41,292 bases of DNA, taken from positions 1-41,292 of IMG/VR virus record IMGVR_UViG_2718217795_000002; one strand, 5' to 3'. The notes under the pieces were generated by a model. It did not search any database and was not told the DNA's origin. It saw only the letters and a program-made list of their open reading frames with translations. Shown in pieces: positions 2,999 through 40,284 of this stretch (within the stretch, counting starts at the first letter, position 1; each line of letters begins with the position of its first letter). Source of the DNA: a virus. Taxonomy: Duplodnaviria; Heunggongvirae; Uroviricota; Caudoviricetes. A program made the translations under genes and the position numbers.

Positions 2999-3611
2999 GG
3001 TTAACCTCCTGCGGCGGCTCCGGTAGCGGCATCCAGTGAGTTATTTCATCGGCAAAGATATCTGAGTTAAGTTCCGTCCAACTATTCCAATACCCAGATT
3101 CATCCCACCATTTAACCTCGACATGCTCGCCGTCGGTCACTAACACATCAGCATACCCTTTCGGCATTCGCTCACTACAGCTTATCCAACTATCCGGAGT
3201 TACCGGAGAGTTGCCAGATAGCTCGTTCAACTTGTAAGTTTGGCTTACAGGTTCGGCACCATGAAGCATGGCGGCGCGGCAGGCATTCCAGCCTCTCACC
3301 TCTGCAATAGCGGCAACAGCATCGACCGCGTACATGCTAAGAGGGTTAGGCATTGTTTTTTCTTCAGGTACTACTGGCACTGGAGGGGCGGCATAAACAG
3401 GAATAACGTCCGCTTGCTCTTTATTGCTTTCATCCGTTAAAGCCCAGAATAATTTCCCGGCCGGATGTTTGAAAATATAAGCAACTGGATCTGCTTCCAG
3501 CGATGCCAGAGCAATTTCATAAGCACGGCGCTCAATATTGTCTCGAACGTCCAAGCTGCCTATGCGCTCTTTGATTTCTTTAATCAGTTCTTTGTCGGTA
3601 AAAGTGGTCAT
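2991..3611 (-). CDS. DUF551-domain phage protein, about 206 aa
   Basis: C-terminal WISCSERMPKGY...WMPLPEPP motif typical of DUF551; start moved to ATG at 3611 with AAGGAG SD (track ORF extends to 3641). Confidence 0.7.
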   Translation of the reverse strand: MTTFTDKELIKEIKERIGSLDVRDNIERRAYEIALASLEADPVAYIFKHPAGKLFWALTDESNKEQADVIPVYAAPPVPVVPEEKTMPNPLSMYAVDAVAAIAEVRGWNACRAAMLHGAEPVSQTYKLNELSGNSPVTPDSWISCSERMPKGYADVLVTDGEHVEVKWWDESGYWNSWTELNSDIFADEITHWMPLPEPPQEVNRG

Positions 3612-5101: not shown

Positions 5102-5590
5102 TTATTTGATAAGAAGTGAAGGTTTCCCAACTTTGAGTTGAGCACCGGGGATATTTATTCCTGCTTTTAGTTGTTGTTTGATTGCCAGTTTGTCGGCTTT
5201 AATTGTCGTTTCGAACTCAACGTATTCAGGAGGAAGGGCGCTTGAGTCGAAGATTTCTACAGTTTCTGACGGTTTGCGGATTGTTACCTGGTGAATACCT
5301 GCTCGAATCTTTTTCTTGCCAACCATTTCAAGCGATGACGCTATATACGCCATAATGCTGTTAATCTTATTTTGAATTACTGCGGCTCGCTCATTTAGTG
5401 ACTTTGCCTCTTCCTTGAGGCGTTCAGCATAACCAGATTCATTTTTAATAATGGCAAGAAGTTGCTCTATTTTATCGGTAAATTCTCCTTCCATGCCTTC
5501 TATTGTGTCAGCAATCATCTCTGGTTCTAAATCTGAATCCATCAATTTTGCGTATTCATTGGCAATTTCATACAGTTTGCTCACTAGCAA
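5102..5590 (-). CDS. Gp157-like coiled-coil protein (recombination-module accessory), 162 aa
   Basis: Directly downstream of recT; family assignment from recollection, moderate. Confidence 0.6.
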   Translation of the reverse strand: MLVSKLYEIANEYAKLMDSDLEPEMIADTIEGMEGEFTDKIEQLLAIIKNESGYAERLKEEAKSLNERAAVIQNKINSIMAYIASSLEMVGKKKIRAGIHQVTIRKPSETVEIFDSSALPPEYVEFETTIKADKLAIKQQLKAGINIPGAQLKVGKPSLLIK

Positions 5591-6470
5591 CCTCCAGTTT
5601 CGCTTTGCATTCTATGTAAATGGCTTGTACGTTCTGCTGCAATTTCATTCCAGATGTCAGGCGATATGCTTCTGCAAAATATCGCTTCAAATCATCCATG
5701 TTTTCTGCCTGAGCCATTTCATCACAAAGAAGTTGTGCTTTATCCATTATTTCCTGCTGGCGTTTCCGTTCATCTTCGCGGATATCTTCCTCTGATTTGT
5801 GCGGCATAACTGGTTCCTGATGCATACCTTCATCTTCGTTAAGCAGGTGAATGGCATTATCCAGTCGCTGGGCTTTAGGCCAGTATTTGCTGGCACGTTT
5901 AACTATTGTTTTACGCGCCATCTCTTCCCAGAATGTTTTCCACGGTCCATTCTTTGCCTTGCTCGTTGCTTCCACAGCTTTAATTTCTGCCAGACTCATT
6001 TCTTCAGTCAGGTAGTCACCATCTGCTGTTTTAACCGTGCAATAACCTCCAACAATAGAGCCTCGCTCACCAAATGCGTTGTATTTGTGGGTTGGTGCTG
6101 AATCAAGGCCATTTGATTCATAGGTGTCGTTTGAGTACACCAGTTTGCATTGCCCCCACTTAATTGATCCTGTCGATTGCGCAAGATGAAGTAATCCCAT
6201 GTAACTGATATCAAGGCACACCATGCCGTCGCGCGGAACCAGATAAGCAAGTTTGCTGGCCGGGTTTAAGGTGATGCCGATCGCCGCAACATTGATGATG
6301 GCGTTCTGTGCGCTGGTTGGATTTGCCAGTGCCGTTTTAGCCAGGTAATCATTTTTCTGGAAATACTGAATTGCAAACTGGCTTTCCTTAGCCCATGTCA
6401 CCGTCTGTTCAGTCAATGCTCCGCAGAATAACTGCTCTTGCTGTTTAACGAATTCAACGATATTGCTCAT
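5568..6470 (-). CDS. recT: RecT-family single-strand annealing recombinase, 300 aa
   Basis: Motifs such as GITLNP...AYLVPR and overall similarity to RecT; sits in the lambda bet position. Confidence 0.85.
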   Translation of the reverse strand: MSNIVEFVKQQEQLFCGALTEQTVTWAKESQFAIQYFQKNDYLAKTALANPTSAQNAIINVAAIGITLNPASKLAYLVPRDGMVCLDISYMGLLHLAQSTGSIKWGQCKLVYSNDTYESNGLDSAPTHKYNAFGERGSIVGGYCTVKTADGDYLTEEMSLAEIKAVEATSKAKNGPWKTFWEEMARKTIVKRASKYWPKAQRLDNAIHLLNEDEGMHQEPVMPHKSEEDIREDERKRQQEIMDKAQLLCDEMAQAENMDDLKRYFAEAYRLTSGMKLQQNVQAIYIECKAKLEVASEQTV

Positions 6471-6778
6471 GCTGCTTCTCCAAAAATGTGTCTGCGTTTG
6501 AATATTGCGAAGGCATATTCAGCCTTAACTCTTTCTGTTATTGCATCCCAGAACCATTCAGCGGCTTTTTCCTGATAGTTACAGTCATCATCTTCCAGCC
6601 AGTCGATAGCGTCCTTAGTGTGTTCATCTGGCTTATATGAGCGAAGCATTTCGCTTATTGGGTCGCAACGTTTGCAGAGGCGATCAACTTCACTGTTGAT
6701 TCGTTCGTAATCTTCATCAGTAAAACTTGCGATTATTTGCGATATTTCACGCTTATCATTCAGAGTCAGAATCATCAT
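6467..6778 (-). CDS. Hypothetical protein, 103 aa
   Basis: ORF whose stop overlaps the recT start; in the lambda gam position but no Gam similarity recognised. Confidence 0.55.
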   Translation of the reverse strand: MMILTLNDKREISQIIASFTDEDYERINSEVDRLCKRCDPISEMLRSYKPDEHTKDAIDWLEDDDCNYQEKAAEWFWDAITERVKAEYAFAIFKRRHIFGEAA

Positions 6779-6859
6779 CTTTCTCCTGTTCTTTGTGCTG
6801 ATTGAGCATTTTGTTCATCTGACGAATGAATTCTTCGTCTGACCAGTTATCTGTAAAAC

Positions 6860-7012
6860 TCATTTCCTGCGATACCACGGAATGTTGATCGCTGATTTCA
6901 TCGCTTTATTTGCTTCAAGCCACATTTTGGAATCACCAATAAATCTGGCTATTACTGCTTTGTTTTGTGCTGCACGAAGCATCTGGTGATTGATGGCTAT
7001 TTCATTGCGCAT
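6860..7012 (-). CDS. kil: Kil-like host cell-division inhibitor, 50 aa (below ORF-track cutoff)
   Basis: GGAGG SD 4 nt upstream of ATG; segment IARFIGDSKMWLEANKA resembles recalled lambda Kil (IATFIGDEKMFREA); located between cIII-like ORF and the recombination genes as in lambda. Confidence 0.4.
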   Translation of the reverse strand: MRNEIAINHQMLRAAQNKAVIARFIGDSKMWLEANKAMKSAINIPWYRRK

Positions 7013-7131
7013 AACGCCTCCAGTTGTTTCTTTGCTGCTCTGATTAATTGTTTAACTCGGCGTGATAATTCAGATTCGTGCGGGTAGAAAGCGGACATGA
7101 CGCCGCTACCCGCGAGCTGAAAGTGCATCAT
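6997..7131 (-). CDS. cIII: cIII-like FtsH inhibitor, 44 aa (below ORF-track cutoff)
   Basis: GGAG SD; pattern ..AG..V......ES.L..R...L.. resembles recalled lambda CIII; position leftward of N as in lambda. Confidence 0.4.
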   Translation of the reverse strand: MMHFQLAGSGVMSAFYPHESELSRRVKQLIRAAKKQLEALCAMK

Positions 7132-7214
7132 GGGTAACTCCTTATATTTGATTGCATAACGAAAACGCCTCGAGTGAAGCGTTATTGGTATGCGGTAAAG
7201 CCGCGCTCAGGCGG

Positions 7215-7463
7215 CTACTCTATTTCTTCTTCGAATGATTTTATTAGTCGGTCAATAACATCATCCGTTTCAATATCATTTCCGTCTGATTGCTTTAATA
7301 CATCTATTGATTCTGCAGCGGTGAATTCCATCGCTGTGAGAAACTCGACAATTGCACACTCAACGACATATCGTTCTTCATCTGTACGACATGAGATAAA
7401 AGAGCATTTAATTGCTGTTATTACTTTTTGTTTAAGCTCTGCAGGGTAATCAGTTTTTATCAT
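7215..7463 (-). CDS. Hypothetical acidic protein, 82 aa
   Basis: ORF immediately downstream of a terminator hairpin; occupies the lambda ea10 position. Confidence 0.55.
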   Translation of the reverse strand: MIKTDYPAELKQKVITAIKCSFISCRTDEERYVVECAIVEFLTAMEFTAAESIDVLKQSDGNDIETDDVIDRLIKSFEEEIE

Positions 7464-7476
7464 CGTTTACTCCGTC

Positions 7477-7505
7477 AAAAAAATTGCCCTCACATTAGAG
7501 GGCAA
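7477..7505 (-). terminator. Rho-independent terminator within the pL operon (8-bp stem ttgccctc/gagggcaa plus T7 run on minus strand)
   Basis: Perfect 8-bp inverted repeat with 6-nt loop followed by TTTTTTT on the transcribed strand. Confidence 0.65.
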
Positions 7506-7660: not shown

Positions 7661-7807
7661 TTAACCAAGTTCTCTGGCAATCATTGCCGTCGTTCGTATT
7701 GCCCACACCATTGATTCTTATCAATAGTCGTAGTCATACGGATAGTCCTGGTATTGTTCCATCACATCCTGCGGATGCTCTTCGAACTCTTCAAATTCTT
7801 CTTCCAT
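7661..7807 (-). pseudogene. ral: ral-like (restriction alleviation) reading frame interrupted by tandem in-frame stops (TGA TAA)
   Basis: 28-aa acidic ORF with GAGGTGA SD (7721-7807), then TGA TAA, then the same frame encodes ...MVWAIRTTAMIARELG*, matching the recalled C-terminus of lambda Ral. Confidence 0.4.
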
Positions 7808-7861: not shown

Positions 7862-7999
7862 TTATTTATCCCACCAAGTTCCGTATCTATCTATCCAGTT
7901 ACACCAATCATCGACACTCCATTTTGTTGTGTCGCATTTTGGCAACTGGCATGAATATCTACCTTCTTTGTAAAGTCGGCGCTTGACTTTCTTGAGCAT
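7862..7999 (-). CDS. Small Cys/Trp-rich hypothetical protein, 45 aa (below ORF-track cutoff)
   Basis: ATG preceded by GAGGTGA SD; just downstream of N stop. Confidence 0.3.
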   Translation of the reverse strand: MLKKVKRRLYKEGRYSCQLPKCDTTKWSVDDWCNWIDRYGTWWDK

Positions 8000-8007
8000 G
8001 GCTCACC

Positions 8008-8340
8008 TCAATCGTAATAAGCTGGAATTGATTTTCCGCGTTGCTTCTGGCGGCCTGAGCAAGTCACACCTATTTCACTGCGTGGCTTGCTGTACCATGT
8101 GCGCTGATTCTTGCGCTCAATACGCTGCAGGTTGCTTTCAATCTGTTCGTGGTATTCAGCCAGCACCGTAAGGTCTATCGGATTCAGTGCGCTTTCTACT
8201 CGTGAATTCGGTTTGCGATTCAGCGAGAGAATAGGGCGGTTAACTGGTTTTGCGCTTACCCCAACCAACAGGGGATTTGCTGCTTTCCATTGAGCCTGTT
8301 TCTCTGCGCGACGTTCGCGGCGGCGTGTTTGTGCATCCAT
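8008..8340 (-). CDS. N: Antitermination protein N (lambda type), 110 aa
   Basis: N-terminal arginine-rich motif MDAQTRRRERRAEKQAQWKAAN identical to lambda N; track ORF trimmed to the ATG at 8340. Confidence 0.9.
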   Translation of the reverse strand: MDAQTRRRERRAEKQAQWKAANPLLVGVSAKPVNRPILSLNRKPNSRVESALNPIDLTVLAEYHEQIESNLQRIERKNQRTWYSKPRSEIGVTCSGRQKQRGKSIPAYYD

Positions 8341-8674: not shown

Positions 8675-9328
8675 TTAACTAAATGTCTCTTCAGGCCACT
8701 GGCTGGCGATAACTTTCCCTACAACGGAACAGCTATCATTGCATGGGATCATTGGATATTGCGGGTTTAGTGGTTGTAGGAACACCTGACCGCTATCCCT
8801 GATCAGTTTCTTGAAGGTAAACTCGTCACCACCAAGTCTGGCTATGCAGAAATCACCTGGCTCAACAGCCTGCTCAGGGTCAACGAGAATTAACATCCCG
8901 TCAGGAAAGCTTGGCTTGGATCCTGTTGGTGCGGTCATGGAATTACCTTCAACTTCAAGCCAGAACGCACAATCACTGGCTTTTTTGGTTGTGCTGACCC
9001 ATCTCTCCGCATCACCTTTGGTAAAGGTTCTAAGCTCAGGCGAGAACATCCCGGCCTGAACATGAGAAAAAACAGGGTACTCATATTGTTTTTTAACGGG
9101 GGCAGATGAGTATTCGCCAACAGGTGAAAATGTACCGTCGTGGTTGAATGAGACGTTATCAATACCAAGGTATTTAAACACCACACCAATCTCGTCAAGA
9201 GATGGATGACGAGATCCGCGCAACCAGTGACCAATTCCACCCTGCGTCATACCAAGCTCTTCAGCTAACTTCTCTTGAGTTATGCCGAGCTCTTTCATTC
9301 TGGATCTAGCCAGTTCATACCATTTCAT
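8675..9328 (-). CDS. cI: CI-type repressor, chimeric: non-lambda HTH N-terminal domain fused to a lambda-CI-like C-terminal S24 autocleavage/dimerisation domain
   Basis: C-terminal region from [14 protein letters not shown] to ...[12 protein letters not shown] is near-identical to recalled lambda CI; N-terminal HTH differs; start chosen at ATG 9328 (9 nt after the purine-rich AAGGG, which abuts the ATG at 9334). Confidence 0.9.
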
Positions 9329-9445
9329 TTTCATACCCTTATTATTACGCTCTGTACTAAAACCATCCATGCACAAGATGTATTTTTTGTTTGCATTCTA
9401 AAAGTACATATCGTATTATTGTTTCATGGTTACTATGGAGGGCAT
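9329..9445. promoter_or_regulatory. Divergent cI-cro control region (OR operators, pRM and pR)
   Basis: 117-bp intergenic region between divergent cI and cro with dyad-like elements (9344-9358, 9369-9396, 9403-9417). Confidence 0.5.
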
Positions 9446-9661
9446 ATGAGCAACCTACGAAAATATCGAGAGTCACTGAATATCTCTCAAACAACACTTG
9501 CTAAGGCAGTTGGATGCACACAGGGAGCTATCGGACATTGGGAATCTGGTCGTCGCTTCCCAGACCTTAAAACATGCCGTGCTCTTGTTGAGTGCCTAAA
9601 CAAGTTAGGCGCAAAAGTCAGTCTTGATGACGTGTTCCCGCCGGAACACAAAGCCGCTTAA
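9446..9661 (+). CDS. cro: Cro-like HTH repressor, 71 aa
   Basis: ATG with GGAGG SD; short HTH protein divergent from cI; track ORF 9275-9661 trimmed. Confidence 0.8.
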   Translation: MSNLRKYRESLNISQTTLAKAVGCTQGAIGHWESGRRFPDLKTCRALVECLNKLGAKVSLDDVFPPEHKAA

Positions 9662-9777: not shown

Positions 9778-10059
9778 ATGGGTACTATTGCAACTAAAAG
9801 CAAGAAAGCGGCTCGCATCGAGTCAGCCTTGCTGAACAAACTGGCACTGATGGGGCAGAAGACATTCGCTCGAGCGATGGGGGTTCCTGAATATCAGGTA
9901 AGCCGATGGAAGAATGGTTTCTTCTCGCAGGTAAGCATGATGCTGGCTGTTCTGGAATACGGAATCGAAGACGATGAAATGGCTGAATTGACTAAGCGGC
10001 TTGCCGATTACCTGACAAAAGAAAAAGCCCCGAAGAACGGCGAATTCTTCGAGGCCTGA
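9778..10059 (+). CDS. cII: CII transcriptional activator, 93 aa
   Basis: RIESALLNKLA...SRWK...MLAVLEYG motif strongly resembles lambda CII. Confidence 0.85.
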   Translation: MGTIATKSKKAARIESALLNKLALMGQKTFARAMGVPEYQVSRWKNGFFSQVSMMLAVLEYGIEDDEMAELTKRLADYLTKEKAPKNGEFFEA

Positions 10060-40209: not shown

Positions 40210-40224
40210 TGGTGTCCCCTGCAG
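40210..40224. repeat. attL core: 15 bp of the argW 3' end duplicated at 1690-1704
   Basis: Exact direct repeat. Confidence 0.8.
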
Positions 40225-40284
40225 GAATCGAACCTGCAATTAGCCCTTAGGAGGGGCTCGTTATATCCATTTAACTAAGAGGAC
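40210..40284 (-). tRNA. argW: tRNA-Arg (anticodon CCU), 75 nt including CCA
   Basis: Reverse complement reads GTCCTCTTAGTTAAATGGATATAACGAGCCCCTCCTAAGGGCTAATTGCAGGTTCGATTCCTGCAGGGGACACCA; cloverleaf-consistent, CCT anticodon in loop. Confidence 0.95.

Follow-up and report, generated by a model that had tools for sequence, protein, structure and literature searches.

A chain of small overlapping genes was studied in a stretch of 41,292 nucleotides (nt) of DNA from a virus of the Caudoviricetes (IMG/VR record IMGVR_UViG_2718217795_000002, positions 1 to 41,292 of that record), which is referred to below as the window. The chain consists of three open reading frames (ORFs) of 44, 50 and 35 amino acids (aa), called here cIII, kil and ORF35. 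In an initial annotation, these ORFs had been placed at 6997-7131, 6860-7012 and 6756-6863 and described as overlapping their neighbours and running into a 103-aa ORF and recT. Reading of the ORFs in the window confirmed the coordinates and the overlaps and placed all three ORFs on the minus strand. The chain and its continuation are composed as follows:

6997-7131, minus strand: cIII, 44 aa, assigned to the HK022 class
6860-7012, minus strand: kil, 50 aa, Lambda_Kil family
6756-6863, minus strand: ORF35, 35 aa, acidic (isoelectric point, pI, 4.27), at the arf position
6816-6863, minus strand: 48-nt mosaic joint, equal to codons 1-16 of ORF35
6467-6778, minus strand: ORF103, 103 aa, acidic, all-helical
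5568-6470, minus strand: recT, single-strand annealing protein (Pfam RecT, E 2.5e-33; phrog_148)
5102-5590, minus strand: Sipho_Gp157 or MuGam-like gene (PF05565, E 7e-37; phrog_253, "Mu Gam-like end protection")

The genes overlap by 16 nt at cIII/kil (6997-7012), by 4 nt (ATGA, 6860-6863) at kil/ORF35, by 23 nt (6756-6778), or 20 nt when counted from the second ATG, at ORF35/ORF103, by 4 nt (ATGA, 6467-6470) at ORF103/recT and by approximately 17-23 nt at recT/MuGam-like. Considering these start/stop overlaps, ribosomes are probably handed from gene to gene. A Shine-Dalgarno (SD) sequence was found 6 nt from the ATG of cIII (AAGGAG), and others were found at spacings of 4 nt for kil (GGAGG), 4 nt for ORF103 (AGGAG) and 7 nt for recT (GGAG). 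The earlier statement that each of the small ORFs has an SD was therefore correct for cIII and kil, but it was weak for ORF35, whose ATG is preceded by just AGGA at a spacing of 1 nt. Because a normal SD is placed farther away, initiation at ORF35 would need termination-reinitiation at the ATGA.

Identity and setting of cIII and kil

The 44-aa ORF had been called cIII-like, and a profile hidden Markov model (HMM) check upheld this name. The protein matched Pfam PF08134 over profile positions 1-37 of 37 with 104.7 bits (cutoff 25, E 2e-30), matched phrog_550 and was identical to the CIII sequence of HK97. With the lambda model PF02061, it reached 12.4 bits, which is below the 25.7-bit cutoff. 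Two CIII classes, a lambda type and an HK022 type, have been described, and the CIII proteins of HK022, HK97 and H-19B are identical (Kobiler et al. 2007, PMC1838920). Judged by sequence, the gene in the window belongs to the HK022 class, which is sister to the lambda class. The annotated start of cIII varies among records, with gene lengths of 186 nt in Kapi1 (3098-3283), 135 nt in HK97 and in the Prokaryotic Genome Annotation Pipeline (PGAP), 132 nt in Sf6 and 102 nt in Louie; the frame in the window is limited to 44 aa by a stop codon.

The kil-like character of the 50-aa ORF was likewise substantiated. The protein matched Pfam PF06301 (Lambda_Kil) with 72.6 bits against a cutoff of 27.6 (E 1.7e-20) and phrog_2055 with an E of 3e-35. 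It differed from HK97 Kil by one residue, and its BLASTP alignment with lambda Kil contained 17 identical residues of 30 (57%, E 3e-9). In RefSeq PGAP, the same gene carries the name "host cell division inhibitory peptide Kil". Since none of the four small proteins had a match in NCBIfam, this name must stem from another rule. The overlap of kil with the 3' end of cIII is 16 nt in the window, 16 nt in HK97 and 32 nt in lambda.

The regulatory genes and signals around the chain are as follows:

7164-7183, minus strand: hairpin resembling a terminator, AACGCTTCACTCGAGGCGTT and then TTCGTT, located shortly upstream of cIII and present in the minimum-free-energy fold
8008-8340, minus strand: N antiterminator, head of the leftward operon (Pfam N36, E 1.6e-26)
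8675-9376: S24/helix-turn-helix (HTH) repressor
9461-9661: Cro-like HTH protein
9778-10059, plus strand: cII (Pfam Phage_CII, E 4e-30)

N, cI, cro and cII are thus arranged in a lambda-like order. A "terminator, putative" is annotated in HK97 at the same place upstream of cIII. Because the hairpin at 7183-7164 matches it, expression of cIII and kil should need N antitermination. The chain probably belongs to an N-dependent delayed-early leftward operon, in which transcription from pL, made termination-resistant by N, would read through the hairpin at 7183-7164 and yield a message carrying cIII, kil, ORF35, ORF103, recT and the MuGam-like gene in this order. Promoter-like matches between 6300 and 8500 were at the chance level (4 found, 4.0 expected) and gave no support for an internal promoter. 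Two plus-strand ORFs, 6882-6989 and 6965-7087, were rejected as spurious; they are antisense to two family-verified genes, and no support for an antisense gene was found.

Several further features of this operon were observed. In the predicted mRNA fold of 7085-7190 (minus strand), the terminator hairpin is immediately followed by a 7-bp hairpin (GUUACCC/GGGUAGC) that encloses both cIII start codons (AUGAUG). This 106-nt segment folds better than shuffled sequences (z -2.98), and its relatives are all nearly identical. This arrangement is reminiscent of lambda cIII, for which control of translation by RNA structure has been described. Another terminator-like hairpin, stronger than the first and composed of TTGCCCTCTAATGTGAGGGCAA and then T7, is located at 7484-7505 (minus strand), just upstream of an 82-aa ORF (7215-7463) that matches phrog_14587, annotated "anti-restriction protein". 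Two more family-supported ORFs of less than 60 aa, at 7721-7807 and 7862-7999 on the minus strand, would also be missed by the ORF track with the 60-aa cutoff; one is a very acidic protein of 28 aa (phrog_16060, E 7e-19), and the other has 45 aa (Pfam DUF5484, E 2.6e-12). An Rfam scan of the whole window at the gathering threshold returned one tRNA and nothing in the small-ORF region. This tRNA gene (40213-40284, minus strand, 63.4 bits) is located near the window end and may mark the prophage integration site.

The window is a mosaic lambdoid E. coli prophage with Kapi1, HK97 and HK140 as relatives. In a megablast search, region 6400-7500 was 98.1% identical at the DNA level to phage Kapi1 over its full length, while other phages matched sub-blocks only, and these matches broke off at query positions 415 and 464, that is, at 6814 and 6863 of the window. 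A 674-nt block was present in 1111 of 5426 complete E. coli genomes, with a coverage of at least 80% in 136. The records of Kapi1 and likewise of Louie, 611R6 and Sf6 list this chain with its genes one by one. The annotation of ORF35 is inconsistent, as the frame is present in Kapi1, Louie and 611R6 and absent from PGAP and from the HK140 record.

ORF35 and the 48-nt joint

The first 48 nt of ORF35 were found to have the same DNA sequence in the window, HK97, Sf6, HK140 and others. In an exact-string scan, this string was present in at least 120 IMG/VR contigs. It was preceded by Kil in approximately 70 of them and by a 56-aa cIII-type gene in approximately 49. It was followed by a 35-36-aa form of ORF35 with ORF103 and RecT in 41 contigs and by 52/56-aa forms with Erf in approximately 77. 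All four combinations of upstream and downstream modules were frequent, the largest classes comprising 35, 21, 21 and 18 contigs, and the segment is therefore a mosaic joint that connects the cIII/kil block with the recombination module. The boundaries of this joint, at 6816-6863, are sharp. The C-terminal part of the ORF35 family follows the downstream module, having a total length of 35 aa with ORF103 and RecT/RecE and of 52-83 aa with Erf. The first 16 codons of ORF35 double as a DNA joint for swapping regulator blocks and recombination modules between phages.

The possibility that the 48 nt form a structured RNA element was rejected, because the regions concerned folded no better than shuffled sequences; the z values were -0.45 at the kil start, -0.40 at the kil/ORF35 junction and 0.0 at the ORF35/ORF103 junction.

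The homologues of ORF35 were searched for with the 40-aa GTG-extended frame as the query. Use of this GTG start, at 6878, is unlikely since it lies inside kil and since relatives located behind the cIII-type gene lack it. A match to phrog_17766 (E 5e-16) was obtained for ORF35, and another covered the first 20 positions of phrog_2123, a family that includes HK97 gp42 and Sf6 gp30; no Pfam or NCBIfam family was found for it. In all of approximately 135 loci examined, the frame was open and had an ATGA start overlapping the upstream stop, although three alternative genes precede it, namely, the HK97-type kil, the 56-aa cIII-type gene and a 54-aa phrog_32687 gene.

Some relatives had rearranged versions of this region. 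In relative P0051, ORF35 has been joined, through an in-frame deletion at the DDD repeat, to the last 40 residues of ORF103, and in relatives P0059 and P0060, EFIRQMK is present in two or three tandem copies. Three metagenome/Logan contigs (L014, L015 and L019) show a third arrangement, in which the 56-aa cIII-type gene, the 54-aa phrog_32687 gene, an ORF35 variant starting with MSIADT, ORF103 and RecT follow one another in this order. The 54-aa gene occupies the kil slot and may encode another host-targeting peptide.

In 60 homologues of ORF35, D9, F12 and I13 were invariant and the WSDEEFI core was nearly so. The length of 35 aa was kept in approximately 50 protein variants. For codons 1-16, 4 synonymous and 8 non-synonymous variants, small counts, gave a ratio of non-synonymous to synonymous rates (omega) of approximately 0.3. 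The pairwise ratios of non-synonymous to synonymous polymorphism (pN/pS) were 0.35-0.8 for ORF35 and 0.05-0.35 for ORF103, with a value of 0 for the latter in one further comparison. Taken together, these values point to weak purifying selection on the ORF35 protein.

The position of ORF35 corresponds to that of P22 arf, which encodes a 47-aa Erf cofactor between kil and erf (order c3-kil-arf-erf). A BLASTP comparison of the two proteins, a single pair, gave 6 identical residues of 12 (E 0.005), and hhalign gave a weak match with a probability of 27% (P 6.6e-4) over 19 columns centred on SDEEFI. The PHROG Arf model matched longer ORF35 relatives with an E of 0.04-0.07. True membership of ORF35 in the Arf family was rejected, since the HMM comparison failed and the profile-profile match was weak, and the resemblance is treated as no more than a lead. 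What Arf itself does at the molecular level is unknown (Casjens and colleagues, PMC12315714). Given its place in the arf slot, ORF35 may assist the annealing protein in an Arf-like manner, but a relay frame with a sequence conserved as a recombination joint is an equal possibility.

The latter explanation, according to which ORF35 makes no functional peptide and its frame is kept as the 48-nt recombination joint and/or as a ribosome relay from kil or cIII to ORF103, is a credible but less favoured alternative. If it were true, only the act of translation, or DNA identity, would matter. It agrees with the identity of the 48 nt at the DNA level across different contexts and with a C-terminus that is wholly different between RecT-type (35 aa) and Erf-type (52, 56, 60 and 83 aa) modules. 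The omega of approximately 0.9 in codons 17-28, the 1 synonymous versus 12 non-synonymous changes in the Sf6-type forms, the lack of a proper SD and the fact that PGAP does not call ORF35 point in the same direction. However, a mere relay or joint does not readily accord with the ATGA start and open frame seen in every one of the approximately 135 loci, with the length of 35 aa in approximately 50 variants, with the invariance of D9, F12 and I13 and the WSDEEFI core common to P22 Arf, or with the low omega (approximately 0.3; 4 synonymous, 8 non-synonymous) in codons 1-16.

A bolder proposal combines the two ideas. The ORF35 family could provide lambdoid recombination systems in general, whatever their module, with an accessory peptide whose invariant N-terminal (W/F)SDEEFI motif, also present in P22 Arf, contacts Erf and RecT alike or a common host factor, while the 48 nt serve as a homology patch for module swaps. 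In this case, one coding sequence would be selected for its protein motif and, at the same time, for its use as a recombination joint. This proposal is speculative and was considered improbable.

Predicted functions and competing explanations

For lambda CIII, it was shown that the essential activity resides in an amphipathic helix, residues 14-37, and that the protein is a competitive inhibitor of FtsH (PMC1838920). In the CIII of the window, the hydrophobic moment, as a computed property only, peaked at 0.72 for residues 21-38, and the same window gave 0.83 in lambda and 0.75 in P22. The gene lies in the pL operon after N and the terminator hairpin, and cII is present in the same phage. Because of homology to the characterised lambda and HK022 proteins, the cIII product is most likely both an inhibitor and a substrate of FtsH. 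Its amphipathic helix would competitively block the FtsH protease, CII (9778-10059) would be stabilised, and lysogeny would be favoured.

Lambda Kil blocks assembly of the FtsZ ring in a ZipA-dependent manner (PMC3961180). It is composed of helices 4-18 and 21-38 joined by a G19-D20 turn, and this hairpin is essential (Naha et al. 2025, PMC11762379). A single-sequence AlphaFold2 model of the Kil in the window, with a mean pLDDT (predicted local distance difference test) of 85, consisted of helix 2-25, a G26-D27 turn and helix 28-42. By analogy, the mechanism is quite probably that of lambda Kil, and the helix-Gly-Asp turn-helix hairpin would keep FtsZ rings from assembling and make cells filamentous in lytic growth or on induction. 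It is unlikely that this Kil has diverged so far that it is inactive or has another target than FtsZ/ZipA. The identity of just 57% over 30 residues to lambda Kil, the N-terminus that is 7 residues longer, the absent RS(S)K motif and the use of the name Kil in P22 and Rac for unrelated proteins with other modes of action are in line with such divergence. Nevertheless, the helix-GD-helix core, which lambda Kil cannot do without, has been retained and is modelled with confidence, the C-terminus keeps its strongly basic character (YRRK), and the family is widespread, nearly invariant and kept beside cIII.

ORF103 was studied with respect to the gam position of lambda. It matches phrog_3486, has a pI of 4.65 and a net charge of -9, and is under clear purifying selection as judged by pN/pS. 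Approximately 30 relatives of about 100 aa, with identities down to 30%, are restricted to enterobacterial phages and are annotated as hypothetical everywhere. ORF103 always accompanies the 35-aa form of ORF35 and lies upstream of RecT or RecE-type genes. It was considered whether ORF103 could be a divergent Gam-type RecBCD inhibitor, by which the lambda order cIII-kil-gam-bet would be fully kept; its location directly upstream of the annealing protein gene and its acidity, which is like that of lambda Gam, suit this idea. However, no Gam match was found in Pfam for ORF103 and 27 relatives (28 family members), a profile search of the PDB with ORF103 did not recover Gam (2uuz), and Foldseek of its predicted model (pLDDT 74 from 8 sequences, moderate confidence) against viral models returned nothing informative. 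In addition, the module already holds a MuGam-like gene, and the HK140-type module is classed as SAP-4 plus MuGam with neither Gam nor GamL (PMC12315714). Since neither sequence nor fold evidence supports it, the assignment of ORF103 as Gam was rejected as very improbable. The MuGam-like Sipho_Gp157 gene after recT is likely, from its family match, to be the DNA-end-protection (anti-RecBCD) partner of the recombination module.

The notion that the small ORFs are open by chance and code for nothing, which could draw on their lengths of less than 60 aa and on the frequency of short ORFs on both strands of the region, has a negligible probability and is already refuted for cIII and kil by family matches at three to four times the curated cutoffs. 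The near-identity to characterised or long-annotated genes and the gene order, which is conserved among hundreds of phages as well as 1111 E. coli genomes, also weigh against it.

The best explanation of the locus, to which a probability of roughly 0.85 was assigned, is that it represents the delayed-early pL-operon part of a lambdoid prophage with CIII, Kil and ORF35 at the arf position. Several observations weigh against this interpretation. A BLASTP search of cIII against lambda CIII gave no alignment at E up to 100. The C-terminal RSK/RSSK motif occurs in almost every homologue of lambda Kil and has been linked to full activity (PMC11762379), but the Kil of the window ends in the basic sequence ...SAINIPWYRRK, in which RS(S)K is lacking. 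A literature search for experiments on this locus or for a functional test of an HK97-type Kil found none. With respect to ORF35, no correctly spaced SD precedes the start, codons 17-28 contained 2 synonymous versus 13 non-synonymous changes, and no match to Pfam Phage_Arf (PF17585) was obtained at E up to 1, whereas P22 Arf itself scored 121 bits.

It had been suggested that cIII and kil could be overlooked. They are indeed absent from the ORF track with the 60-aa cutoff, but public records annotate both genes widely, including those of HK97, Sf6, H-19B, Kapi1 and RefSeq PGAP E. coli genomes. Both are long-known, already annotated genes, and the chain is an ordinary finding. The two genes add nothing new, as the proteins are identical or near-identical to those of HK97 genes described more than 20 years ago. 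Such a cutoff would nonetheless hide two potent prophage genes, a host-protease inhibitor acting in the lysis-lysogeny decision and a cell-division inhibitor toxic on induction, and scans of lambdoid early operons should be complemented with small-ORF family searches. Modest residual value lies in ORF35, an exchange joint that is not called by PGAP, and in ORF103, a conserved uncharacterised partner of the RecT/RecE module; both could be tested cheaply in recombineering assays.

Comparison with known systems

The closest counterparts of cIII are the genes of HK022, HK97 and H-19B. The 44 residues are identical to those of HK97, the gene has the same position after a terminator and the same overlap with the kil start, the helix at 21-38 is common to them, and no difference was detectable at the protein level. 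Lambda CIII (PF02061) forms a separate sequence class, with a likeness only at the level of motifs, namely, an M..xAG N-terminus and an HES.L.R centre.

Kil shares with lambda Kil, HK97 gp43 and Sf6 gp31 the helix-GD turn-helix core, the FIGD(E/S)KM motif and the character of a small basic peptide, and in these phages, kil likewise overlaps the 3' end of cIII. Compared with lambda Kil, the protein of the window has 7 extra N-terminal residues and ends in INIPWYRRK rather than in LKLRSSKSIH.

HK97 gp42/gp42.1, Sf6 gp30 (phrog_2123) and a Salmonella 60-aa ORF (phrog_17766) have the first 16 codons of ORF35 in DNA-identical form with the same ATGA start after Kil/cIII, whereas their C-terminal parts are unrelated to that of ORF35. 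P22 Arf (PF17585) is, like ORF35, a small acidic ORF product (pI 4.05 versus 4.27) encoded between kil and the recombination genes, and its gene overlaps the end of kil. The (W/F)SDEEFI core near the N-terminus is common to both, FSDEEFI being at the same distance from the N-terminus in Arf. However, the remainder of the peptide is unrelated, the partner of ORF35 is RecT and not Erf, and ORF103 intervenes in the window.

The lambda red module (gam-bet-exo) is likewise a recombination module located directly after kil, and RecT is the functional analogue of Beta. The window differs in that it has no homologue of Gam or Exo, and end protection is probably provided by the MuGam-like gene. The proposed correspondence to the lambda order cIII-kil-gam-bet was thus retained for cIII, kil and the annealing protein, but it failed for gam, since ORF103 has no sequence or profile similarity to Gam and the MuGam-like gene follows recT. 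Because a small acidic ORF lies between kil and the recombinase gene and because ORF103 is not Gam by sequence, it may be concluded that the gene order is closer to c3-kil-arf-erf of P22 than to that of lambda.

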